From an uncultured beta proteobacterium (GTDB lineage: Bacteria > Pseudomonadota > Gammaproteobacteria > Burkholderiales > SG8-41): a stretch of DNA of 64,000 nucleotides. Location of the stretch: contig CAISYC010000018.1 of the NCBI GenBank assembly GCA_903889565.1, positions 18,712 through 82,711 of the forward strand, written 5' to 3'. The position numbers and the translations under genes were made by a program. Below the pieces are notes generated by a model. The model ran no database searches, had not been told where the DNA came from, and saw only the letters and a list, made by a program, of their open reading frames with translations. Positions 1,773-61,733 of this stretch are shown one piece after another (the first letter of the stretch is position 1; every line of letters starts with the position of its first letter).

Positions 1773-2066
1773 ATGGCCAAAGGCTACTGGATCAATTGTT
1801 TCCGTTCTATCAAGGACGCTGCCAAGGTTGACGCTTATCGCAAACTCGCGGGGCCGGTGATGGAAGCGACCGGCGCGAAGTTTCTGGTGCGCGGCGATCC
1901 GGCGAAGGTTTATGAGGCGGGCATCGTCGGACGCGTCGTCGTCATCGAATTTCCGAGCGTGGAGGCGGCGGTGGCCGCCCACGACAGCCCCGGCTATCAG
2001 GCCGCGCTGAAAGCACTGGGCGACGGCGCCGAACGCGATCTGCGCATCGTCGAGGGGCTGGCCTGA
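1773..2066 (+). CDS. DUF1330 domain protein
   Basis: ORF 1767..2066. ATG 1773 has better spacing to GAGGAG. MAKGYWINCFRSIKDAAKVDAYRKLAGPVMEATGAKFLVRGDPAKVYEAGIVGRVVVIEFPSVEAAVAAHDSPGYQAALKAL is typical of ~95-aa DUF1330 proteins. Confidence 0.75.
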   Translation: MAKGYWINCFRSIKDAAKVDAYRKLAGPVMEATGAKFLVRGDPAKVYEAGIVGRVVVIEFPSVEAAVAAHDSPGYQAALKALGDGAERDLRIVEGLA

Positions 2067-2083
2067 GCCGGTAAAACCGTGTT

Positions 2084-2119
2084 TGCGCGGAACGGCGGCA
2101 CCGGCCGTCGGTCCGCGCA
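2084..2119. terminator. GC-rich hairpin between convergent genes (possible bidirectional terminator)
   Basis: TGCGCGGA (2084-2091) pairs with TCCGCGCA (2112-2119), with inner CGGC/GCCG pairing. It sits between the DUF1330 stop (2066) and the GlcG-like stop (2125). There is no clear U-tract on either strand. Confidence 0.3.
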
Positions 2120-2124
2120 GGGTG

Positions 2125-2625
2125 TTACTTCAGTTGGTCGGCGATCTTGTCGAGGCCGGCCTTGACGCAGGCTTCGTCCTTGTCGCCGCCGGGTGCGCCC
2201 GAGGCGCCGATGCCGCCGATGGTGTCGTCGCCGACCTTGATCGGCAGACCGCCCTGATTGGCAATGATGTTGCTCAGATGGATCAGCGGAAAGGTCGGAT
2301 CGTTTTTCAGGCGCGTGACGATTTCACCCGAAGGAACGCGGAAGGTGCGTGCCGTGTAGGCCTTGCGCAGGCTGTTCTCGAAGGCGTGCGGGCTGGTGTT
2401 GTCGCCGCGCACCTGCAGTATGACCTCGCCGCTGCGGCCGACCACCGTGACCGAAACGGCGTAGCCGTTCGCCTTGCAGGATGCGAGCGCCGTTTCCGCC
2501 ATGGTCATGGCCATGCCTGCGGTCAGATCCTTGTGTTGCAGCAATTGGGCGCTTGCCGGCTGGGCCATTGCGACGAGCCCGAGGCCAGCAAGCAAAATCC
2601 CGGTCATTTTCTTGTTTGATGACAT
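2125..2625 (-). CDS. GlcG/HbpS-like (DUF336) heme-binding-family protein, secreted
   Basis: ORF 2125..2673. Start ATG 2625 is preceded by GGAGGA (2631-2636). Signal peptide MSSNKKMTGILLAGLGLVAMAQPASA. C-terminal GGLPIKVGDDTIGGIGASGAPGGDKDEACVKAG is the DUF336/GlcG signature. Confidence 0.8.
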   Translation of the reverse strand: MSSNKKMTGILLAGLGLVAMAQPASAQLLQHKDLTAGMAMTMAETALASCKANGYAVSVTVVGRSGEVILQVRGDNTSPHAFENSLRKAYTARTFRVPSGEIVTRLKNDPTFPLIHLSNIIANQGGLPIKVGDDTIGGIGASGAPGGDKDEACVKAGLDKIADQLK

Positions 2626-2700: not shown

Positions 2701-3669
2701 TCAGTCGGCGCGCATGCCGGTGGCCTTTGCGACCTTGATCCATTTTGCCGACTGTGCGGCGAGAAACGCGCCGAACTGTTCGGGCGTCTGCGTTTCGAGA
2801 TCGGTGCCCTGCGCCAGCGCGCGGTTTTTGACGTCGGGATTTTCGGCGATGCGGTTGAGTTCGCGGTTGAGCAGCGCGACGACTGCGCGCGGCGTGCCGC
2901 GCGGCGCGAGGATACCGTTCCATGCGCTGACATCGAAACCGGGCAGGCCGGATTCCGCGACCGTCGGCAGTTCGGGCAGGGCGGCGGAACGCCTGCGGCT
3001 GCCGATGGCGATGCCGCGCAGACGCCCGCTCTGGATCAGCGGCACGCAGGGCGGTACCGTCAGGAAGGCAAGCTGCGCCTCGCCTGCAATCAATGCGGTC
3101 AATGCGGCGGCCGTGCCTTTATACGGCACATGCGTGATCGGTGCGCCCGTCATCAGCTTGAACAATTCACCGGCGAGGTGGGCGGTGGCGCCGGTGGTGC
3201 CGCCGGCGTAGTTCAGACCGCCCGCGCGCGCTTTGGCCAGCGCGATCAGTTCGGTCACGGTTTTCGCCGGCAGGTTGATGTTGGTCACCAGCACGCTGCC
3301 GGTAAGACCGGTCAGTGCGACCGGCGTGAAATCGCGCACCGGATCGAACGAGAGGTTTGCATGCAGCGTCGACATCAGCGAGTGGCTCAGATTGGCGAGC
3401 AGCAGCGTGTAGCCGTCGGGCGCCGCGCGCGCAACTGTCTCGCCGGCGATGACGCCGCCGCCGCCGGGTTTGTTATCGACCACCACGGGCTGAGCGAAAT
3501 GGTCGGCGAGGCGCTGGCTGAAAGCGCGCGCCAATGCGTCGGTGGTGCCGCCGGGCGCGGAGACGACGACCAGGCGCACCGGCTTTGCCGGATAATTCTG
3601 CGCGGCGGATGCGGCCGGCACGCCGATCGCCAGTACGATCGCGAGCAGATTCGATGCTAAAGGCCGCAT
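2701..3669 (-). CDS. Bug/TctC-family periplasmic solute-binding protein
   Basis: 322 aa. Signal peptide MRPLASNLLAIVLAIGVPAASAAQ, then NYPAKPVRLVVVSAPGGTTD, PDGYTLLL, VPYKGTAAAL, GLPGFD. Confidence 0.92.
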   Translation of the reverse strand: MRPLASNLLAIVLAIGVPAASAAQNYPAKPVRLVVVSAPGGTTDALARAFSQRLADHFAQPVVVDNKPGGGGVIAGETVARAAPDGYTLLLANLSHSLMSTLHANLSFDPVRDFTPVALTGLTGSVLVTNINLPAKTVTELIALAKARAGGLNYAGGTTGATAHLAGELFKLMTGAPITHVPYKGTAAALTALIAGEAQLAFLTVPPCVPLIQSGRLRGIAIGSRRRSAALPELPTVAESGLPGFDVSAWNGILAPRGTPRAVVALLNRELNRIAENPDVKNRALAQGTDLETQTPEQFGAFLAAQSAKWIKVAKATGMRAD

Positions 3670-8176: not shown

Positions 8177-8791
8177 ATGAAATTATTCGGCACACCGGGC
8201 AGTCCGTTCGTGCGCAAGGCGCGTCTGGCGCTGGAAGAAAAGGGCGTCGACTACGAATACGTGCTGGCGCCGCGCGAGACGCGGGCGGCGCTGGTGTTTC
8301 CGCTCAATCCGCTCGGCAAGATTCCGGTCCTGCAGCGCGATGACGGGCAGGCGGTGTTCGACTCGCCGGTGATCGTCGAGTACGTCGATGGCCTCAAACC
8401 GGAGCCGCGCCTGATTCCGGCGGCATTCGAGGACCGCATCGCGGTCAAGCGCTGGGAGGCGCTGGGCGACGGCATCGCCGAAGCGACGGTGCTGATCACG
8501 CACGATCTGCGCGAGCCTGCGGACCGGCGCCAGCCGGAAAAATGGTACGAAGCGCAACGCGGAAAGATTCGCCGCGGGCTCGCCATGATGGAGCGCGAAC
8601 TCGGCGACGGCGCGTTCTGTTACGGTAACGCGTTCACGCTCGCCGATATCGCCGCAGGTTATGCGCTCGGCTATCTCGACGCGGGCATACCCGGTTGCAA
8701 TTGGCGCGCGGCGAGTCCGCGGCTCGCGCGGCATTACGACAAACTGGTCAAGCGCGTATCGTTCATAAAGACCGACCCGGCGACAACGTAG
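8177..8791 (+). CDS. glutathione S-transferase family protein
   Basis: ORF 8126..8791. ATG 8177 follows GGGAGA. MKLFGTPGSPFVRKARLALEEKGVDYEYV...GKIPVLQRDDGQAVFDSPVIVEYV is a GST N-terminal thioredoxin-like domain. C-terminal helical domain includes TLADIAAGYALGYL. Confidence 0.85.
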   Translation: MKLFGTPGSPFVRKARLALEEKGVDYEYVLAPRETRAALVFPLNPLGKIPVLQRDDGQAVFDSPVIVEYVDGLKPEPRLIPAAFEDRIAVKRWEALGDGIAEATVLITHDLREPADRRQPEKWYEAQRGKIRRGLAMMERELGDGAFCYGNAFTLADIAAGYALGYLDAGIPGCNWRAASPRLARHYDKLVKRVSFIKTDPATT

Positions 8792-8842
8792 CGGCGCGGG
8801 ACTGATTGCGAGGGCGCCCGGCGGCGGTCGCTCTCCCGGCGT

Positions 8843-9484
8843 TTATTTTTCGCCGCGTTTCATGCGCAGCCATTGCGGGTAGCTGATGCGCGGCATTTCG
8901 AAGCGGTCGGTGATCCGCGCATAGCCGCCGTTGCCGGCGAGCCGGCCGATCGGGTTGACGCGGCCGACATCGACGTGGCCGCGTTCGTTGGCCAGTCCGT
9001 CCGCGAAGTGGTAGTAGAGCACTTCGCCGATCACAAGGTGATACGGCCGGCGCCCGAGCTTCAACATCTGCACGAGTCTGCATTCGAAGGCGGCCGGCGC
9101 CTCCTTGATGCGCGGCGCCCGCACTTTCGCAGCGGATACTGCGGTAAAGCCCGCCTGCCTGATTTCGTCGACGCCGCGCGGGAATTCCACCGCACACACG
9201 TTCATGCGGTCGCTCATGTCTGCGCTGACGATGTGAATCACGAATTCAGGGCACCAGGCGATGTTGGTTACGGTGTCCTTGGCGCCGTCGTCGCGGTCGC
9301 TCACGGAAAACATCAGCATGCCGGGATCGGTGCAGGCGACGTTGAAGAAGCTGAACGGCGCCGCGTTCGGTCCGTCGGGGCCCAGGGTCGTCACCAGCGC
9401 GATCGGGCGCGGCGTCACCGCGCCGTGCAGCAGCCTTGATTGCGTCGCCTGGTCGAGCGTTGCGGCGTCGAATTCCACGCGCAA
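8843..9484 (-). CDS. flavin reductase-like FMN-binding domain protein
   Basis: 213 aa. LLHGAVTPRPIALVTTLGPDGPNAAPFSFFNVACTDPGMLMFSV is the flavin reductase domain signature. Confidence 0.8.
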   Translation of the reverse strand: MRVEFDAATLDQATQSRLLHGAVTPRPIALVTTLGPDGPNAAPFSFFNVACTDPGMLMFSVSDRDDGAKDTVTNIAWCPEFVIHIVSADMSDRMNVCAVEFPRGVDEIRQAGFTAVSAAKVRAPRIKEAPAAFECRLVQMLKLGRRPYHLVIGEVLYYHFADGLANERGHVDVGRVNPIGRLAGNGGYARITDRFEMPRISYPQWLRMKRGEK

Positions 9485-53388: not shown

Positions 53389-55065
53389 TTACCTGGGCAG
53401 AAGGGCAAATGTCCAGACCATGCCGCCGAGCGGTACTTTTTCCCGCAATTCGGGCGGCGTATTGACTGCACCACCGCCGCGACCCGACAGCACGCTGACG
53501 TACTGGCGACCCTTGTAGGTGAAGGTTACGGCGGGGGCATTGATGGCGGATCCGGTTTGATATTGCCAGACGATTTTTCCGTTGTCTGCGTCGATGGCGA
53601 CGACCTCCCCGGTCTGCTTGCCGGAAAACAGCAGGCCTCCGCCCGTTGAAAGCATGCCGCCCCATTGCATGTAGTCCATGAGCGGTATTTTCCATTTCGT
53701 TCTGCCGGTCAGCGGGTCGATCGCCATGTAATAGCCGTCGGGCGTGCCCGGTTTGCGCGGTGGAACCGAGGTCTGCACGCCGGTATAACGCTGGCCGGGT
53801 TTGTATTCTTCGATCGGTGTGAATTTGAAAATGCGCGGATGGTTTGCCGCATTCAGATAAAGCAGTCCCGTATTCGGATTGAACGCCATCGGCACCCAGT
53901 TTTTCCCGCCGCGCGGCCCCGGCCAGAATTCCACCTCTTCGCCCGCCAGCATGCGTTTCAGGAGGTCGGTAAACACCGGGCGACCGGTGGTGAGGTCGAT
54001 GCGCTCGGCCCAGTTCTGTCTGGCGAATTCATTGGCGGCGATCAGCTGGCCGGTTGCGCGATCGATCACATAAAGAAATGCGTTCTTGTCGGCGTGCATC
54101 AGAACCTTGCGCATCGTGCCGTTGATTTTGATGTCGGCGAGAACGTTTTCATTCACCGCATCGAAATCGAAAGGATCGCCCGGCGTGAACTGGTAATGCC
54201 AGACGATTTCACCGGTTTTGGGGCGCACCGCGATGACCGAGGCAATGTGCTGGCTGTCGCCCGGACGGTCGACCGGATTCCACGCGCCGCCGTTGCCGGT
54301 GCCCCAGTACGTCAAATCGAGTTCCGGATCATAGGAACCGGTAACCCAGGTCGTGCCGCCGCCGTGTTTGTAAGCCTCGCTATCCTTCGGCCATGTTTCG
54401 GATCCGGGTTCGCCGGGGCCGGGTATGGTGTAGCGGCGCCATAAATGTTTGCCGGATTCCGGATCCCAGCCGTCGAGGAATCCGCGCACACCCAGTTCCG
54501 CGCCGGACATGCCCGAGATCAGAACACCGTTCGCAATCAGCGGCGCCGCTATACCGGAAATGCCTTCCTTCCATTCGGCGAATTTCTGCCTCCAGACTTC
54601 CTTGCCGGTTTTCAGGTCAAGCGCGCGAACCTGCGCATCAAGCGTGACGCGGAACAGCCGGCCGTTATAAATCGCCGCGCCCTTGTTCGATACGCCGCAG
54701 CAGACGACGCGAATCGTCGACTGATCCCATTCCTCGGCCGTGCGCCAGACCTGGCGGCCGGTTTCGACATCGATTGCGGCAGTCCACTTCGCGTTGGTGA
54801 CATACATGACGCCGTTGTAGACCAGCGGCTGCGCCTGTTCGCCGAAAATGTTTTCGGTGCTGTAGCTCCAGACGGGGACAAGGCGACGAACGTTGCTTCG
54901 ATTGATCTGTTTGAGCGGGCTGTAGCGTTGCTGCCCGTAGCCCATGCCATAGGTGGTGATGTTGTCGGTGTTTTTGCCGTCATGCAAAAGCTCGTCGGCG
55001 GTCTGCGCATGCACTGCGGCGCAAAATGCCAATGCGGCGGCGGCAACAATCAATTTTGACTTCAT
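53389..55065 (-). CDS. PQQ-dependent alcohol dehydrogenase (methanol/ethanol family) with D-x-D lanthanide-type signature
   Basis: 558 aa. Signal peptide MKSKLIVAAAALAFCAAVHAQ. Vicinal Cys pair in IRVVCCGVSNKG. Propeller W motifs. GTGNGGAWNP. GDPFDFDAVNEN, with DFD at 54160-54168. Confidence 0.88.
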   Translation of the reverse strand: MKSKLIVAAAALAFCAAVHAQTADELLHDGKNTDNITTYGMGYGQQRYSPLKQINRSNVRRLVPVWSYSTENIFGEQAQPLVYNGVMYVTNAKWTAAIDVETGRQVWRTAEEWDQSTIRVVCCGVSNKGAAIYNGRLFRVTLDAQVRALDLKTGKEVWRQKFAEWKEGISGIAAPLIANGVLISGMSGAELGVRGFLDGWDPESGKHLWRRYTIPGPGEPGSETWPKDSEAYKHGGGTTWVTGSYDPELDLTYWGTGNGGAWNPVDRPGDSQHIASVIAVRPKTGEIVWHYQFTPGDPFDFDAVNENVLADIKINGTMRKVLMHADKNAFLYVIDRATGQLIAANEFARQNWAERIDLTTGRPVFTDLLKRMLAGEEVEFWPGPRGGKNWVPMAFNPNTGLLYLNAANHPRIFKFTPIEEYKPGQRYTGVQTSVPPRKPGTPDGYYMAIDPLTGRTKWKIPLMDYMQWGGMLSTGGGLLFSGKQTGEVVAIDADNGKIVWQYQTGSAINAPAVTFTYKGRQYVSVLSGRGGGAVNTPPELREKVPLGGMVWTFALLPR

Positions 55066-55200: not shown

Positions 55201-56928
55201 CTAATCTTGATGCGGTGCGGATTCGAGCGCCGCAAACGGCGCGGCGGCGTAAACGGTGCGCCCGCCCACCATGGTCAACAGCGAAACGATGCTGCCGATC
55301 TGTGCGACCGGCACGCCGAGATAGTCGCGGTCGAGCACGGCGAGATCGGCGAGCCGGCCGACTTTGAGCGCGCCGCGGGTATTTTCTTCAAAACTGAACC
55401 ACGCGCTGCCTTGCGTATAGAGGCGCAGCGCGTCGATCCGCGCCGGCAGTTCCTCCGGCGCGCGCATCGCGACGCCGGAGACGGTTTTGCCGTCGAGCAT
55501 CCATTGCAGCGAAACGAAAGGGTTCGGCGCCATCACGCGGTGTGCGTCGGTGCCGCCGCCCACCGGCAGTTTCATCCGCAGCGCGCTGACCAGCGGCGGC
55601 ACCCGGCGCGCGGCTTCGGCGCCGCGCTGGCCGAGGAAGGCTTCGCCGCGGAAATAGAACGCGTTCTGCACGAGCCAGCCCATGCCCATCGCCTGCAAAC
55701 GCCGCAGCGTGTCGGGCGACGCGTCGTTGAGATGCGCTACCGACCAGCGCAGATTTGCGACCGGCGTGCCGGTGTTGACGCGTTCGATCACATCAAGCAG
55801 ATGATGTGCCGCGCCGTCGTTGTGCCAGTGAAATGTTGCGGTCATGCCGCGCGATACGGCCCAGCGCAGCACGGCGGCGAGCTGCTCTTTCTGGTTATCG
55901 TTCGGCGTATCGTTGTTGTAGAAGCCCCAGGTGACGTTCTCGCCGATGCCGTTGAAGCGCAGCCAGTCGTCGCCGAAGCCCATCGGCAGCAGCTGCGTCA
56001 GCGCTTTGAAGTCTTCGAGTTCGCGATCGCGGCGCGGCGCACTCAAGCTGTAGCGCACGCGCACGGTCAGCCCGTGCTCGCGCCAGACCTGAAACAGCGG
56101 CAGATAGTCCTCGACTTCGATGTTATAGCCGCCCGGATCACTGACACCGGTGATGCCCATGGCATTGAGAGCTCGGAAAAAGGCACGCGTGCCGGCGAGC
56201 TTCTGTGCGTAGTCCGGGCGCGGCAGCAGGTTGAATAGATCGCTGATCGCGCGGTTGTCGCCGGTGAGCCAGCCGGTCGGCTTGCCGTTGCTGTCGTTTC
56301 CATCGCGCTCGACGGCAAGGCGCGCGGCCAGTTCCGGCCGGCCGGCAAGACCAAGTGCCGCGGCACCGCCCGCGTCGAGCAGCACGGCGCTGTAGAGCAA
56401 CTGGATGTAGACATGATGATCCGGCGCGGCAGCGGCGATCTCGGCTTGCGTCGGCCGGCGGTCTTCGGCGAACTGCCGGTCGGTCCAGCCGCCGGCCACC
56501 ACCAGCCATGATCCTTTCGGCGCGTTCTTCGCCGCGTTGCGCAAACGCATGAGCGCTTCTTTAAGTGTGCGCGCGCCGAACCAGTGCACTTCGGTGGTGT
56601 AGCTCAGGCCGGCGCGAATGGCGTGGATATGCGAATCGATCAGACCCGGAATCACGGTGCGGCCGCCGAGATCGATGATTTGCGTCGCCGGACCCGCCAG
56701 CGCGCGCAGGCGTGATGTTTCGCCGATCGCCGCGATTTTTCCGTCGCGCACCGCCAGGGCCTGCGCCGGCGGACCGTCGAAGACGACGAATTTGCCGTTG
56801 ATGAGGAGCGTGTCGGGCGCCGCGATCTGCGCGCGCACGGCACTGCCGCAGAACAGCGCACAGGCGAAAACCGCGGCGACGCCGGCGCGCGTGTACGGGC
56901 TGCGCCTTACTGGCGCTGCATCGTGCAT
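55201..56928 (-). CDS. secreted amidohydrolase (YtcJ-like, Amidohydro_3 type)
   Basis: 575 aa. N-terminal hydrophobic leader AGVAAVFACALFCGSAVRAQ. VIPGLIDSHIHAIRAG (HxH). The start overlaps the upstream gene by 22 nt. Confidence 0.82.
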   Translation of the reverse strand: MHDAAPVRRSPYTRAGVAAVFACALFCGSAVRAQIAAPDTLLINGKFVVFDGPPAQALAVRDGKIAAIGETSRLRALAGPATQIIDLGGRTVIPGLIDSHIHAIRAGLSYTTEVHWFGARTLKEALMRLRNAAKNAPKGSWLVVAGGWTDRQFAEDRRPTQAEIAAAAPDHHVYIQLLYSAVLLDAGGAAALGLAGRPELAARLAVERDGNDSNGKPTGWLTGDNRAISDLFNLLPRPDYAQKLAGTRAFFRALNAMGITGVSDPGGYNIEVEDYLPLFQVWREHGLTVRVRYSLSAPRRDRELEDFKALTQLLPMGFGDDWLRFNGIGENVTWGFYNNDTPNDNQKEQLAAVLRWAVSRGMTATFHWHNDGAAHHLLDVIERVNTGTPVANLRWSVAHLNDASPDTLRRLQAMGMGWLVQNAFYFRGEAFLGQRGAEAARRVPPLVSALRMKLPVGGGTDAHRVMAPNPFVSLQWMLDGKTVSGVAMRAPEELPARIDALRLYTQGSAWFSFEENTRGALKVGRLADLAVLDRDYLGVPVAQIGSIVSLLTMVGGRTVYAAAPFAALESAPHQD

Positions 56929-57281
56929 TCGGTTTCGATGAACATCGCAACGGCGCCGGGCGGCGCGCGGCGGGTGGTTTTGGTCTGCTTGTAGCCGGCT
57001 TTCGCGCAGGAGATCTGCACGTCCTTGGGCAGCACGTCCTTGTTGATGTGGCCGCGATAGAGCCCGAGTGCATTCGATTTCAGCAATACGGCATTGCCCT
57101 TCGCCGGCTGCAGCGTCACCTGCGCGTCCACGAGCGGCGAGCCGCGGGTATCGCGTACGAATCCGAAATAAGCGGGGCCCGCGCCCATGGTGTCGTTGGC
57201 GCCTTCATAATCGTCGCCGCCGGCAAACAGCGGCGTGCTGGCGAGCAGGCCTGCGGCCAGCATCAGTATTCGAGTCAGCAT
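56907..57281 (-). CDS. small secreted carboxypeptidase-regulatory-like domain protein
   Basis: 124 aa. Signal peptide MLTRILMLAAGLLASTPLFAG. FGFVRDTRGSPLVDAQVTLQPAKGNAVLLKSNALGLYRGHINKDVLPKDVQISCAKAGYK fits the CarboxypepD_reg beta-sandwich pattern. Confidence 0.6.
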   Translation of the reverse strand: MLTRILMLAAGLLASTPLFAGGDDYEGANDTMGAGPAYFGFVRDTRGSPLVDAQVTLQPAKGNAVLLKSNALGLYRGHINKDVLPKDVQISCAKAGYKQTKTTRRAPPGAVAMFIETECTMQRQ

Positions 57282-57323
57282 GTCGACCTCGTGATCAGTG
57301 AAATCCTCGACGGCACGGCGGCG

Positions 57324-57686
57324 CTATTCCCAGCGCCAATAGAACTTCAGCGAATAGAGCAGCACCGGCAGCAGCACAACCGGAACCACCCACGCCAGCG
57401 CCAACGGAATTTTGTCGCGCAGCGTTTGCGGCAGCGCGGCGGCAAGCGCGCCGAGCAGCCCGGCGCCGAGGGCCGAACTGGCGATCCAGCCGTACCAATA
57501 CATCGCCGGTCCCTCGTCCGGGCGCGGCCGCACAAAGCCCGCATCGATGCGGTCGGTGCCCGGGTGATAGGTGAACAAGGGCAGGGCAGCCATGTCGCAG
57601 ATCACATAAAGGATCGCAAAGCAGACGCCGAAGACCAGCGCGAAGCAGCCGAAACGCGACGTCGCGGTGGCGTTGTCCTCGTTCAT
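57324..57686 (-). CDS. small integral membrane protein (3 predicted TM), unknown family
   Basis: This is the internal part of ORF 57324..57986. ATG 57686 overlaps the upstream stop (ATGA). MNEDNATATSRFGCFALVFGVCFAILYVICDMAALP...MYWYGWIASSALGAGLLGALAAAL...IPLALAWVVPVVLLPVLLYSLKFYW. Confidence 0.6.
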   Translation of the reverse strand: MNEDNATATSRFGCFALVFGVCFAILYVICDMAALPLFTYHPGTDRIDAGFVRPRPDEGPAMYWYGWIASSALGAGLLGALAAALPQTLRDKIPLALAWVVPVVLLPVLLYSLKFYWRWE

Positions 57687-58186
57687 AACCCGAAACCGCG
57701 CACGTTGTTGACGACATGGCCGGTCAGAAACGCATACCAGCAGATTGCGGCGAGCACCACGGTCAGCCATTTGCGCGCCCGCTCGCCGGCCGCAGTGCGC
57801 GCGCTTTTCCACAGATGCCGGTAGAACGGCAGCAGGCCGAGTCCGATCGTGGTCAGGTGTTCCTTCAATTCGAACGCGCCGAGGGTTTTGAAAAATCCCT
57901 CCTGTTCGATCGGAATGCGCACGTAGATGCGGTACTTGGCGTAGATCCAGCCGCCGAGAATGAAGGCAAGAACCCACAACACGCAAACGGCGCCGGCATA
58001 ACGCGGTCCCGACACCGAGCGGAAATGCGTGACGAAACCTCCGTCGCTGCGCGCGCGTGCCGGCATCAGAACGGCAGCCGCCTGATGCGTCAGCGCGCCG
58101 AGCAGCGCAACTGCCAGCAAGGCATGTGCGATGGACAGAATGGTCCAGAAGGTGTTGACGGAAATGTAATCGAACAAGAAGTCCAT
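57683..58186 (-). CDS. integral membrane protein (4 predicted TM, His-rich), unknown family
   Basis: ORF 57683..58189 (GTG 58189 or ATG 58186). TM segments: FWTILSIAHALLAVALLGALTH, AVCVLWVLAFILGGWIY, LTTIGLGLLPFY, WLTVVLAAICWYAFLTGHVV. His residues lie at or near the membrane boundaries. Confidence 0.65.
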   Translation of the reverse strand: MDFLFDYISVNTFWTILSIAHALLAVALLGALTHQAAAVLMPARARSDGGFVTHFRSVSGPRYAGAVCVLWVLAFILGGWIYAKYRIYVRIPIEQEGFFKTLGAFELKEHLTTIGLGLLPFYRHLWKSARTAAGERARKWLTVVLAAICWYAFLTGHVVNNVRGFGL

Positions 58187-58242
58187 CACGCTTCCACGAT
58201 CGAAAACGACGGCGCGGGACTGTTACCCGCGCCGCCGCTGTT

Positions 58243-60390
58243 TCAGTGCGCCAGCGGATCGGGTCTCAACTGGAAGTGCGCGGCGAGCGGCTTGGTGCCC
58301 TTGCCGCCTTCGATCATCCACGGCACGCGATCGCCGTTGGCGGCCCACAGGCCGCGGCCTTTCCAGCCGGCGTTCGGATCGTCGATGCGGCCGTCAAAAC
58401 CCTTGGCGTAGAAGCCGAGCGGATAGGGCACGCGGATCGATACCATCTTGCCGTCCTTGTTGAGCGCGACCAGGCCGTCCATCAGGTTGGCGGTGGACAT
58501 CGGAACGTCGTCGCCGAGGCCGAAGGTGTTGTGCTGATCGACCCACGAGTAGTAGCTCGACTCGGCGCTGTTCTCGCCGATGCCCTTGAAGCCCGGGCCC
58601 GGATACTGGAAGAATGCCCAGCCCTCGGGGCACTGGTCGCCGGTGGCTTTCGGGCCGTTGAGCGGCCCTTTGCACAACCGGCGGTCGAACATGCCCATGT
58701 GACCGCTGGCGAGCGAAACCCACACGCGGCCCTGCATGTCGATGTCGCCGCCGCGCGGGCCGAAGCCGGGCAGCGGCACGTTGTACATTTCAGCGAGCGA
58801 CTTGTGCGGATTCTTGGTCGGATCGATGCGCACGATCGCGCCCGGATTGCCGCGCAACGTTCCCCACACCGAGCCGTCGACCGGGCTCGGCATGATCGCG
58901 TAGAAGCCGCCGCCGATGCGCATGTCCTTGGTCGGATCCAGCGGCTTGCCCGGCTCGGTGTAGGCGTCACGCACGCCGTTACCGTTGGTGTCGAGCACGA
59001 TCGCGGTCCAGCCCTGAGATTTCTGGATATCGCCGGTTTCGTCGAGCATCTTGGTGTTGAGCCAGCCGACGTAGCCGCCGCCGCCGCCAGTGCTCGCCCA
59101 CAGCGTCTCGGTGCCGTCGTAGCCGAACTGCAAATGGTGCGAGCCGAAACAGGTCTGATACGGCGTGTACTTGCCGGTCTTCGGATCGTACATCGTCACG
59201 CGGCGATTGGTGCTGTCGATCGGAAATTCGACCGCCGACGGATGCGTCGAGCCTTTTTTGCAGAAGTCGGGGTTGTCCGGTTTGTGGCCGGTTGCCGCCA
59301 GCCACAGACGACCCTGGCGGTCGAACATCGAGTTGTGGTTGTTGGCCTTGCTGTTCCAGATGTCCTCCGCGCCCCAATAGGCCGAGGTCTGCAGGATGTG
59401 CACCGAGCCGGCGTTGCCGGGCCCGAGCGCGAGCGGCATGTCGGCGGTGGTCGGCAGCACATAATTGGTCGCAACGTTTTTCACCGGGTCGAGAATCGGC
59501 ATGTCGTTGCCGGCGTGTTCGCTCTGCCCGTAAAGCGGACCGTAGCCGTTGACCGTCGGATAGCGTTTGTCGGTCGAGATCAGGTCGTGCAGATACTGTT
59601 TCGGGTTGTGCCAGTCGCGCAGCGTGACGACGATATTGCGCTCGACGCCCTGCGGCCGCGTCGGTTTCGCCCACGGCAGTTCGCCCTTGGCGACGCGTTC
59701 GGTCCAGTCGGCCAGATATTCGAACGGCATGCCGGCGAGCTGGCCGGCGGCGATCAGCACCATGTTCTCACCGGCCTGACCGGACTGGATGCGGCGCACC
59801 CATGCTTCCTGAAAGGTCCTGCCTTCCATGTGGTACTTGGGAATCGTGCGAGTCGCCAGCTGGCCCAGCTGGTGGCAGCCGACACAGCCATTGTTCTTCA
59901 TGCCGTTGAGGTAATCGGTGAGCTTGATGTTGCTCGGCGCATCCTTGCTGCCGAAGATGCTGGCTTCGGGGATTTTCATCATCGAGTACCAGTAGATCGC
60001 CGGGTAATATTGCGCGGCGGCCGCTTCATTCGGCGCCGGCACCGCTTTGAGATCGAGCAGTTTGCCGGGCGCGCTCTTCACCTTCGGCGAATCGACCAGA
60101 CCGTAGCCGCGCACCCAGATGTCGTAGGTGGCCTTCGGCAGATCGGGGATGACATAGCGGCCCTGATCGTCTGTCACGACAATGCGGATAAAACGCACTG
60201 GCAGATCATGCGTTTCCGCAATCACCCAGACGCCGGCTTCCGGTCCCTTCGGGCCACTGACCACGCCGCCGATATCGTCGTTATCGATCGTTACCGCAGC
60301 CTTCGACTGGGCCTGCAGCGTGGCGGGTGCAATCAGACCCAGGGCGGCAATGGCGATCGCGGCCGCGCCGTTCAAAAGAAATTTGCGCAT
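58243..60390 (-). CDS. secreted CarboxypepD_reg-like domain + mono-heme cytochrome c (CxxCH) + Vgb-like beta-propeller protein
   Basis: ORF 58243..60477. ATG 60390 is 9 nt after GGAGGAG; ATG 60396 is the alternative. Signal peptide MRKFLLNGAAAIAIAALGLIAPATLQAQS. GVVSGPKGPEAGVWVIAETHDLPVRFIRIVVTDDQGRYVIPDLPKATYDIWVRGYG. NNGCVGCHQLG (59872-59886). Blade-like repeats: GRLWLAATG, ETLWASTGG, GSVWGTLRGNPGAIVRIDP, GRVWVSLASG, GLWAANGD. Confidence 0.75.
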   Translation of the reverse strand: MRKFLLNGAAAIAIAALGLIAPATLQAQSKAAVTIDNDDIGGVVSGPKGPEAGVWVIAETHDLPVRFIRIVVTDDQGRYVIPDLPKATYDIWVRGYGLVDSPKVKSAPGKLLDLKAVPAPNEAAAAQYYPAIYWYSMMKIPEASIFGSKDAPSNIKLTDYLNGMKNNGCVGCHQLGQLATRTIPKYHMEGRTFQEAWVRRIQSGQAGENMVLIAAGQLAGMPFEYLADWTERVAKGELPWAKPTRPQGVERNIVVTLRDWHNPKQYLHDLISTDKRYPTVNGYGPLYGQSEHAGNDMPILDPVKNVATNYVLPTTADMPLALGPGNAGSVHILQTSAYWGAEDIWNSKANNHNSMFDRQGRLWLAATGHKPDNPDFCKKGSTHPSAVEFPIDSTNRRVTMYDPKTGKYTPYQTCFGSHHLQFGYDGTETLWASTGGGGGYVGWLNTKMLDETGDIQKSQGWTAIVLDTNGNGVRDAYTEPGKPLDPTKDMRIGGGFYAIMPSPVDGSVWGTLRGNPGAIVRIDPTKNPHKSLAEMYNVPLPGFGPRGGDIDMQGRVWVSLASGHMGMFDRRLCKGPLNGPKATGDQCPEGWAFFQYPGPGFKGIGENSAESSYYSWVDQHNTFGLGDDVPMSTANLMDGLVALNKDGKMVSIRVPYPLGFYAKGFDGRIDDPNAGWKGRGLWAANGDRVPWMIEGGKGTKPLAAHFQLRPDPLAH

Positions 60391-60764
60391 GATCATGTCT
60401 CCTCCAACAGTAGACGATCCCGGTCGGGAATCACCCGTCAGTCGCGATTGTCGCGGCGTCGATGGTGCCGGGCCCATTACCCACCCTGCGTCCGCTCACA
60501 GATTTCCCTCATTGCGCGCCGTGGTCGATTGAACCAATGCCGCGCCGATTGATGCAGGAAGGACTGTTGCAGGTGGGTTGAATTATTGGCAACTTATTTT
60601 TCCCAGCCGCACCATATCACCGCCTTCATGTGTGGTCAAACCGGTGCGTATGCCATCGTAAAACCGCCGCTTGACCGGCGCGAAGAGCGCTTGCCTCAGC
60701 GAGGCAGACCTGCTTCGCTGCGCCGTTGATCAGGTCGGCAACCGGCGATATCGAAGGTGCGGTT

Positions 60765-61733
60765 TTATTCCGGCTTGATGCCGATATCCTTGACGAGCTT
60801 GGTCCACTTCGTGACTTCGGCGCGGATGTGCGCGGCGAATTCGGCCGGCGTGCTGCCGAGCACATCAAAGCCCTGTGCTTCGGCGCGGGCGGTGACTTCA
60901 GGGTTCTTAATGGCAGCGACCACTTCCTTGTGCAGTTTCGTGACGAGGGCTGCCGCGGCGCGCGGCGGCGCGAGCACGCCGTACCATTGATCGGTGTTGA
61001 AGCCCTTCAAGCCGGATTCGGAAACGGTCGGGATTTCCGGCAACTGCGGCGCGCGCTTGAGGCCGGTCACCGCCAGCATGCGCAGCCGCCCGCTTTTGCC
61101 GTGCGGCATTGCCGAAGGCATCGAGGCGAAGGTGAGTTCGATGTGGCCGCCCAGCAGGTCGGTGAGCGCGGGGCCGTTGCCCTTGTAGGGCACGTGGATC
61201 ATCGTCGTGCCGGCCATGTAGTTGAAGAGTTCGCCCGACATGTGCGGCGCGCTGCCGCTGCCGGCCGACGCATAACGCAACTGGCCGGGGCGGGCCTTTG
61301 CATAGGCGATCAGTTCCTGCACCGATTTCACCGGCACTGCCGGATGCACCACCAGCAGATTCGGCGCGGTCGCAATCAGCGAAATGGGCGAAAAATCCGT
61401 CACCGGATCATAGGGCAGTTTCGACAGCGCCGGATTGATGCCGTGCGAGGCGGTGTAGCCGAGGATCAGCGTGTAACCGTCGGCATCCGCCTTTGCCACC
61501 GCCAGCGCGCCGATGCTGCCGCCGGCGCCGCTGCGGTTATCGACCACGAAGGGCTGGCCGAGATTGTCGGTGAGTTTCTGCGCCAGCAGGCGGCCGAGGA
61601 AGTCGGTGCCGCCGCCGGGCGCAACCGGAATGATCAACCGCACCGGTTTCAATGGATAACGCTCGCTTTGCGCGACTGCATTGATGGCCCATAGCGCCGT
61701 CAGCACCGCAACGATTGCGCGAGCGCGCTTCAT
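60765..61733 (-). CDS. Bug/TctC-family periplasmic solute-binding protein
   Basis: 322 aa. MKRARAIVAVLTALWAINAVAQSERYPLKPVRLIIPVAPGGGTD, ADGYTLIL, VPYKGNGPA, GLKGFN. The start overlaps the SDR stop by 1 nt. Confidence 0.92.
   Translation of the reverse strand: MKRARAIVAVLTALWAINAVAQSERYPLKPVRLIIPVAPGGGTDFLGRLLAQKLTDNLGQPFVVDNRSGAGGSIGALAVAKADADGYTLILGYTASHGINPALSKLPYDPVTDFSPISLIATAPNLLVVHPAVPVKSVQELIAYAKARPGQLRYASAGSGSAPHMSGELFNYMAGTTMIHVPYKGNGPALTDLLGGHIELTFASMPSAMPHGKSGRLRMLAVTGLKRAPQLPEIPTVSESGLKGFNTDQWYGVLAPPRAAAALVTKLHKEVVAAIKNPEVTARAEAQGFDVLGSTPAEFAAHIRAEVTKWTKLVKDIGIKPE

Follow-up and report, generated by a model that had tools for sequence, protein, structure and literature searches.

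Several described systems resemble single parts of the locus analysed here. Virginiamycin B lyase (Vgb) is a cytoplasmic, haem-free protein of about 300 amino acids that acts as a Mg-dependent C-O lyase. Cytochrome cd1 nitrite reductase (NirS) holds haem d1 in an eight-bladed propeller, requires d1-biosynthesis genes and has cytochrome c551 (NirM) as its donor. The window, which is the whole stretch of 64,000 nucleotides that was analysed (contig CAISYC010000018.1, positions 18,712 to 82,711, from an uncultured beta proteobacterium), contains a block of five genes, named here g1 to g5 in the order of their transcription. We treat the product of g1 as a secreted mono-haem cytochrome c, with haem binding presumed, that is fused to a Vgb-like propeller. 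The five genes are a functional gene cluster, as judged by their common strand, their short spacing and their co-occurrence between variable flanks, and this cluster is real, conserved and uncharacterised; its novelty lies in known folds in a combination without prior study.

According to the table of open reading frames (ORFs) of the window, five minus-strand ORFs follow each other in tight succession from 55201 to 60396. The coordinates of these and of further features are summarised in Table 1, in which g1 is counted from the first of two ATGs; the alternative start at 60390, which is used by public gene calls, results in 715 amino acids. The g1-g2 spacer comprises 56 nucleotides according to both coordinates and sequence, the stop codon of g2 and the start codon of g3 share an ATGA overlap that was confirmed in the sequence, the g3-g4 spacer has a length of 42 nucleotides, and g5 starts inside g4 with an overlap of 22 nucleotides. 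Signal-like hydrophobic segments are located at the N-termini of g1, g4 and g5. An earlier note, made from the letters of this DNA, had described the layout, the spacings and the position of a CVGCH motif in g1, all of which were found in the sequence as claimed. The search of the region for riboswitches and known RNAs gave no match, and a scan for promoters and terminators remained at chance level.

The linkage of the genes was visible from the side of g2. A metagenome scan starting from this gene provided 80 loci with g2 proteins of 60-88% identity, whose neighbours were scored by tblastn. Where the contig offered room, g3 followed g2 in 69 of 69 loci, g4 was present in 43 of 44 and g5 in 29 of 33. 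Fifty-five loci with at least 400 nucleotides upstream of g2 were informative for g1, and a g1 relative was adjacent to g2-g5 in 47 of them (85%). In 35 loci it directly precedes g2 in the same orientation, in 5 it is further upstream, separated by a second g1 paralogue in tandem or by a longer spacer, and in 7 it is the direct upstream neighbour and divergently transcribed. These module-linked g1 copies are 48-96% identical to the g1 of the window and are found, mixed with lone copies, in at least five clades of a neighbour-joining tree of 117 copies; the co-occurrence of the five genes, for which the earlier note had suggested a search, extends well beyond one clade. Moreover, loci with a g1 closer to that of the window tend to have a closer g2 as well (Spearman 0.68 between the two identities, n = 48), the genes flanking the block vary from locus to locus, which leaves sharp block boundaries, and several related loci repeat the 22-nucleotide g4/g5 overlap. 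The block is shared by many uncultured bacteria of soil and freshwater. We conclude that the module is real and old, with g2-g5 strongly tied to g1 and g1 not tied to g2-g5.

Two side observations concern the composition of the module. In the discordant loci L109, L124 and L158, g1 is 82-92% identical to that of the window, whereas the g2 next to it reaches only 66-68%, a pattern that points to an exchange of g1 between modules. The loci L163 (3627-4677), L167 (~8627-9305) and L168/L169 (8830-9436) contain an additional 0.4-0.8 kilobases (kb) between g3 and g4 and are missing g5; in these loci, the module is present in a reduced or remodelled form.

The AlphaFold2 model of g1, built from 69 homologues, is confident, with a predicted local distance difference test score (pLDDT) of 92.2 and a predicted template modelling score (pTM) of 0.90. 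It consists, in this order, of a signal helix, a beta-sandwich, an all-helical domain with the CxxCH motif and a large propeller. The N-terminal hydrophobic segment ends with AQS and resembles the signal peptide that had been proposed, which predicts export to the periplasm. For the beta-sandwich, the assignment to CarboxypepD_reg in the earlier note was correct in terms of fold, as the strands are present in the model, and went too far in terms of family, as PF13620 matches g1 with an expectation value (E) of 0.0037 and 18 bits and does not reach its cut-off of 32.3; precomputed PF13620 matches exist on many g1 homologues. Since the profile is below its threshold in both g1 and g4 and the fold of g1 is compatible with it, these domains are named here CarboxypepD_reg-like beta-sandwiches. 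No similarity was found between g4 and the N-terminal sandwich of g1.

The propeller was likewise recognised by its structure. The best matches of g1 to the PDB in Foldseek are the virginiamycin B lyase structures 2z2n, 2z2p and 2qc5 (E 2e-11 to 2e-10; template modelling (TM) score 0.79-0.82 normalised to the target, 0.81 for the best match), with 11-12% sequence identity, in agreement with the Vgb/streptogramin-lyase type that had been read from the sequence. The match is restricted to the propeller, for which the model points to a seven-bladed fold of the Vgb type. The periplasmic sensor propellers BT4663 and BT4673 are found among the lower-ranked matches. No solved structure in the PDB resembles the whole of g1 in Foldseek, and no PDB sequence is related to it. 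The Pfam model Vgb_lyase (PF24684) does not match the window g1 at E 0.1, and there is a faint precomputed match on one 35%-identical relative; because g1 fails this sequence model, it is not filed as a Vgb lyase.

The haem-c attachment site is conserved. In an alignment that extends to 36% identity (A2), each of C171, C174, H175 and Met212 is kept in at least 90% of the sequences; all four are invariant in an alignment of 31 sequences of the domain (A3), and the conservation of CxxCH and Met212 spans 33-100% identity. The earlier note had made its proposal dependent on a conserved CxxCH, and the motif is kept in all 66 g1 copies from the fetched loci and in 185 of the 192 family members that cover the site. 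Judged by these alignments, CxxCH of g1 is not a chance motif, and haem is presumably incorporated. In the model, Met212 is located C-terminal to CxxCH within the helical domain and is a candidate for the distal ligand. The haem domain gave no match to Pfam even at E 10; the best PDB matches of its profile are the class-I cytochromes c-552/c-551, weakly at E 0.3, in a register that runs from CxxCH through Met to the C-terminal Trp.

Additional support comes from a gene that is inserted in some loci. A secreted class-I cytochrome c of 108 amino acids (PF00034, 29 bits) is encoded between g1 and g2 in L117 (3830-4156), and a 57%-identical copy follows right after g1 in L148 (~2971-3210, minus strand) and L154 (~1900-2139, minus strand), in both of which g1 and the cytochrome gene are divergent from g2-g5. 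The inserted cytochrome c is c551/c552-like and was seen in the most divergent versions of the cluster. A soluble cytochrome c directly after g1 argues that the haem of g1 takes part in electron transfer, and a redox function of the g1 module is likely.

The two membrane proteins g2 and g3 do not belong to a described family, as neither matched Pfam (up to E 10) or NCBIfam. For g2, AlphaFold2 predicts four long helices (pLDDT 79), which agrees with the four transmembrane segments of the earlier note, whose label "His-rich" was an overstatement for a protein with six His. Four of these, His21, His34, His110 and His157, are invariant down to 60% identity and lie on transmembrane helices, with H21 and H34 on helix 1; further invariant residues are E94, N160, N161 and R163. 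There are about 1800 g2 homologues, all of them unnamed. The protein g3 has three hydrophobic segments, as had been predicted, and a conserved loop FTYHP...EGPAMYWYGW. The ATGA overlap suggests that g2 and g3 are made together. The topology of g2 predicted with the positive-inside rule would place three of its invariant His close to the periplasmic side of the membrane and the fourth close to the cytoplasmic side, an arrangement that is more compatible with one haem or metal site facing the periplasm than with a classical di-haem cytochrome b.

In scans of individual members, DUF2231 weakly matched 6 of 33 g3 proteins (best E 0.019), and, below significance, DUF420 matched 4 of 25 g2 proteins and COX15-CtaA 1 of 25; the DUF420 family, as we assume, includes the oxidase-assembly protein CtaM. 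Together with a scattered weak Pfam match to MSMEG_3727_PQQ-assoc, these matches are taken as leads and not as evidence. Searched against PDB sequences, the profiles of g2 and g3 yielded nothing beyond chance matches. A relationship of g2 to oxidase subunit III was considered, as CtaE and CyoC top the Foldseek list, with E values of at least 0.07 and TM scores of about 0.5; hhalign of g2 against Escherichia coli CyoC and of g3 against CyoD gave nothing, and kinship of g2 to oxidase subunit III was rejected. A function of g2/g3 as electron relay for g1 is conceivable, and roles as permease or maturation factor also stand as candidates.

The remaining two genes encode secreted proteins. In g4, a signal peptide is followed by a domain that PF13620 matches below threshold (E 4e-4, 21 bits against the cut-off of 32.3), so that the earlier description as a secreted CarboxypepD_reg-like protein applies to secretion and not to formal membership of the Pfam family. 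Two Cys are invariant in alignment A7, and the N-terminal tail GGDDY.AAND is acidic and conserved, with His in some loci; g4 is a small disulfide-containing sandwich. As stated in the earlier note, g5 is a secreted YtcJ-like amidohydrolase: it matches Amidohydro_3 (PF07969) with 258 bits over profile positions 1-472 of 472, and the metal motif D98-S-H100-x-H102, H367, H399 and D461 is invariant. As the metal ligands are kept, the enzyme is probably active. The nearest solved structures align with g5 only over the N-terminal ~140 residues (E 7e-11). NCBIfam has no name for g1-g4 and no equivalog-level family for g5. Gene linkage is what suggests that hydrolysis by g4/g5 could be coupled to g1.

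Table 1. Features of the five-gene block and its downstream neighbour (window coordinates).
Feature	Position	Strand	Description and basis
g1	58243..60396	-	717 amino acids, counted from the first of two ATGs; ORF
g1 beta-sandwich	60073..60273	-	residues ~42-108, CarboxypepD_reg-like; AlphaFold2 strands, PF13620 below threshold
g1 helical haem-c domain	59635..60039	-	residues ~120-254; helices 124-254 in the model
CVGCH haem-c attachment motif	59872..59886	-	residues 171-175; sequence
g1 propeller	58246..59634	-	residues ~255-717, Vgb-like with large insertions; Foldseek against PDB
GC-rich stem-loop in g1-g2 spacer	~58206..58238	-	minimum free energy -31.4 kcal/mol, z-score -4.0
g2	57683..58186	-	167-amino-acid integral membrane protein; ORF
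g3	57324..57686	-	120-amino-acid membrane protein; ORF
g4	56907..57281	-	124-amino-acid secreted beta-sandwich protein; ORF, PF13620 below threshold
g5	55201..56928	-	575-amino-acid secreted YtcJ-type amidohydrolase; ORF, PF07969
PQQ-dependent alcohol dehydrogenase	53389-55065	-	directly downstream of the block; TIGR03075, 579 bits (PQQ, pyrroloquinoline quinone)

The spacer between g1 and g2 contains a GC-rich hairpin (Table 1) that is conserved in 23 loci, including L003-L009 and L086-L114, with compensatory changes at 6 of its 12 base pairs. It is not followed by a strong U-tract. The hairpin is probably a partial terminator or a stabiliser of the mRNA 3' end, which would raise g1 above g2-g5. 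A different spacer was observed in another clade (L123, L127, L130, L133, L135 and L145), in which a hairpin GTTGGGGC...GCCCCAAC is followed by the conserved stretch CATATCCCGACTGAGTTTGGCGACGGCAGGAGGGT.

The family of g1 is large. At least 8000 matches were found in a database clustered at 90%, and 6090 representatives of 50%-identity clusters were obtained at E <=0.001. Relatives with 55-87% identity originate from Burkholderiales, Xanthobacteraceae, Beijerinckiaceae, Vicinamibacterales, Verrucomicrobiia, Binatia, Rokuibacteriota, Woeseiaceae, Pseudohongiella and Bradyrhizobium isolates. Their source names are limited to "hypothetical protein", "carboxypeptidase regulatory-like domain-containing protein" and "streptogramin lyase", the last being a label on some homologues from JGI (Joint Genome Institute). 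No function is assigned to g1 in Pfam, NCBIfam, the PDB or the searchable literature, and nothing relevant was found in the literature on its combination of domains. The view of the earlier note that g1 does not fall into a biochemically defined family thus held in databases and literature alike, as did its view of an uncharacterised gene set, since g1, g2 and g3 are without a family in Pfam, NCBIfam or the PDB and without a paper.

Several loci carry g1 paralogues in tandem or close to each other: L122 (269-4528), L125 (2555-6790), L150 (3493-7917) and L156 (3604-7969), and pairs are also present in L016, L020, L031, L041 and L054. The members of these pairs are about 50-60% identical to each other's clade and occur both ahead of g2-g5 and without them, which speaks for divergence within the family as to substrate or partner. 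Among plasmids, the collection that was searched contained one lone g1 homologue and no g2. This homologue (WP_099514940.1, 65.5% identity) is encoded at 65925-68078 on the 977-kb plasmid NZ_CP016619.1 of Microvirga ossetica V5/3m (L172), next to a fragment of 62 amino acids annotated as PQQ-dependent sugar dehydrogenase; as it originates from a cultured isolate, it is a possible entry point for experiments.

The reading that we prefer, to which we give nearly an even chance, is that of a periplasmic redox module with g1 as catalytic haem-propeller, g2/g3 as dedicated membrane partner and g4/g5 as accessory hydrolytic pair. In this module, g1 would be exported and carry a covalent c-type haem with His/Met ligation beside its Vgb-like seven-bladed propeller, and the propeller would be the catalytic or substrate-binding part. 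Through the haem, electrons would pass between the site in the propeller and the respiratory chain, in one direction or the other, which would make g1 an oxidoreductase with the architectural logic of cytochrome cd1 nitrite reductase or the quinohaemoprotein dehydrogenases. The translationally coupled g2 and g3 may form a seven-helix membrane complex specific to the module, which would most likely be the membrane-side partner of g1, either as electron relay via a His-ligated cofactor or as docking site. As a periplasmic accessory pair, g4 and g5 could carry out the metal-dependent hydrolysis of the same substrate or its product, and the hairpin after g1 would probably keep g1 more abundant than g2-g5.

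A number of observations weigh against this proposal. A genome scan starting from g1 provided 80 species-representative loci, and at 76 of them g2-g5 were absent within 10 kb; the lone g1 relatives are 55-83% identical to that of the window, and the four loci with g2-g5 belong to the closest Burkholderiales/Comamonadaceae metagenome-assembled genomes, with g1 86-87% identical. Lone copies were also found in three further contigs and in one 35%-identical relative, and the Microvirga plasmid likewise carries g1 without g2-g5 within 10 kb. It follows that g1 needs no g2-g5 in cis. The synteny that the earlier note had made a test of its proposal is strong when traced from g2 and weak when traced from g1, and its description of g2 and g3 as private, dedicated partners of g1 does not hold as an obligatory association in cis. 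From the opposite side, g1 is absent from the available contig sequence in 8 of the 55 informative g2 loci. No conserved neighbours of lone g1 were found except TctC receptors and the occasional tandem g1 paralogue, and no clue to the substrate was found. The CxxCH motif is lost in four apparently intact members (P0246, P0254, P0258 and P0271), so that the propeller may work without haem, and Vgb itself is a non-redox lyase. Finally, g2 shows no significant similarity in sequence or fold to known haem-binding membrane proteins such as cytochromes b and quinol dehydrogenases, and the topology of its His is a misfit to the two-plus-two pattern of a di-haem cytochrome b.

The lone copies also form the basis of the alternative that survives best, which we regard as rather unlikely: g1 would be a self-sufficient enzyme that uses general soluble cytochromes, and g2-g5 would be a separate addition for the same compound, which g5, with g4, would hydrolyse; g2/g3 would not be a redox partner in this case but a small permease of seven helices for the uptake of the product or of a metal ion. 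In favour of this, the majority of g1 relatives stand alone, g1 is transcribed divergently from g2-g5 in some loci, either by itself or together with the cytochrome c gene, and some g2-g3 loci are without g1; it is the soluble cytochrome c, not g2, that is found right after g1 in L117, L148 and L154. The invariant E94, N160, N161, R163 and His of g2 resemble the polar and charged residues of small transporters, and g2 is dissimilar to cytochromes b. However, transporter families are not matched by g2 and g3 either, the surroundings contain no further conserved component of an uptake system, and the adjacency of g2-g3 to g1 in 85% of the informative loci, across deep divergence, is tighter than that of genes that merely share a pathway.

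An improbable explanation is that g2-g4 are maturation factors, with g2/g3 as membrane pair and g4 as small periplasmic chaperone, that deliver a metal or cofactor to the g1 propeller or to g5, comparable to the accessory genes of nitrous-oxide reductase. The three invariant His clustered near the predicted periplasmic face of g2 resemble a metal site, g4 is a small beta-sandwich with a conserved acidic, in some loci His-containing, tail, g5 is a metalloenzyme, and the weak g2 matches concern the haem-handling families DUF420 (4 of 25) and COX15-CtaA (1 of 25). However, all these family matches are below significance, neither ABC transporters nor other genes for metal handling are found among the conserved neighbours, and g1 is a lone gene in the majority of cases, so that its maturation does not generally depend on these genes in cis.

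It is more improbable still that g1 is not an oxidoreductase, being instead a haem protein of the periplasm with a binding or sensor role, or a lyase whose haem is purely structural. This would be compatible with the sensor propellers BT4663 and BT4673 among the lower Foldseek matches, with the lyase activity of Vgb and with the few homologues without CxxCH, whereas g1 has neither a signalling domain nor a regulator linked to it, its strong conservation (55-87% identity across phyla) is typical of enzymes, and the cytochrome c gene directly after g1 favours electron transfer. An adjacency of the five genes by chance or recent shared ancestry, without joint function, which the first full-block loci, all from close Burkholderiales relatives, might have indicated, is hardly credible and is contradicted by synteny, as the block is found again at identities as low as 60% for g2 and 48% for g1, between varied flanks, rearrangements keep the neighbours together and the gene overlaps are conserved.

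The preferred redox module can be taken one step further, and here we consider it doubtful, though worth stating, that g1 founds an unrecognised class of haem-c/Vgb-propeller oxidoreductases and that g2/g3 constitute a new membrane module wiring it to the respiratory chain. If so, the class would span Proteobacteria, Acidobacteriota, Verrucomicrobiota, Binatia and Rokubacteria with more than 6000 50%-identity clusters, and it would represent a new entry or exit point for the electrons of an environmentally common substrate that is also processed by g4/g5. Independently of this, g1 is among the bigger protein families without a function and is strongly conserved across phyla in bacteria of soil, freshwater and marine sediment; as a haem-linked oxidoreductase, it would catalyse a common, unnoticed periplasmic reaction that feeds or drains the respiratory chain. 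In addition, g2 and g3 define two membrane protein families that are absent from current domain databases. The five-gene version provides a handle for finding the substrate, with defined partners, a hydrolase and a homologue in a Microvirga isolate.

Among the flanking genes, the PQQ-dependent alcohol dehydrogenase downstream of g5 (Table 1) was considered as a part of the module, with g1 as its cytochrome, and rejected, as it adjoins the block in the genome of the window only and was not found next to the block in the other module loci. Its D-F-D motif GDPFDFDAVNE aligns with WDFDGVNE of the PDB entries 6zcv/6zcw, which we take to be the lanthanide-dependent PedH, and the type II dehydrogenase 1kv9, presumably calcium-dependent, has WDFTATQQ at this position; judged by this motif, the dehydrogenase of the window is probably lanthanide-dependent. 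On the other side, a solute receptor of the TctC/Bug type is encoded at 60765-61733 on the minus strand. Such receptors flank the block in 14 module loci and are the only recurring neighbours among those examined for conservation. TctC receptors are very abundant in Burkholderiales genomes; their recurrence is probably a by-product of this abundance, and a link to organic-acid uptake may exist.

The comparison with known systems concerned g1, g2 and g5. With the membrane subunits of periplasmic redox enzymes, quinol dehydrogenases or cytochromes b of the NapC/NrfH and FdnI/NarI type, and with haem-copper oxidase subunit III, g2 shares the four-helix build, invariant His and a periplasmic haem protein as neighbour, but no significant match in sequence, profile or fold. 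The propeller and haem subunits of hydrazine synthase were considered as relatives of g1, and no connection was found. The YtcJ-like amidohydrolases (PF07969) are matched by g5 over the full length with the HxH, His, His and Asp ligands kept, which makes g5 a genuine Amidohydro_3 member; unlike these relatives, g5 is secreted, its gene overlaps with that of a small beta-sandwich protein, and it has no equivalog family.

For g1, the nearest fold is that of Vgb (2z2n/2z2p/2qc5), with the same type of propeller and a G-x-[LV]-W blade motif that recurs in g1. However, the identity is only 11-12%, the Vgb_lyase model of Pfam misses the window g1, and g1, unlike Vgb, is an exported protein in which a haem-c domain and a beta-sandwich accompany a propeller of about 460 amino acids with large insertions. 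The quinohaemoprotein (type II) alcohol dehydrogenases (1kv9) share with g1 a periplasmic propeller with a covalently attached cytochrome c domain, which in these enzymes carries electrons away from the active site, but they are eight-bladed and PQQ-dependent with a C-terminal haem domain, and g1 matches no PQQ family; no studied redox member is known for the propeller type of g1. In the case of NirS, there is no sequence similarity and no Foldseek similarity among the top matches, and no nir genes are located nearby. Nevertheless, NirS is a periplasmic protein in which a class-I cytochrome c domain precedes a beta-propeller, g1 appears to be built likewise, and the small c551/c552-type gene directly downstream of g1 in L117, L148 and L154 recalls the layout of NirS and NirM, a likeness that is an analogy of design and not membership of the same family.

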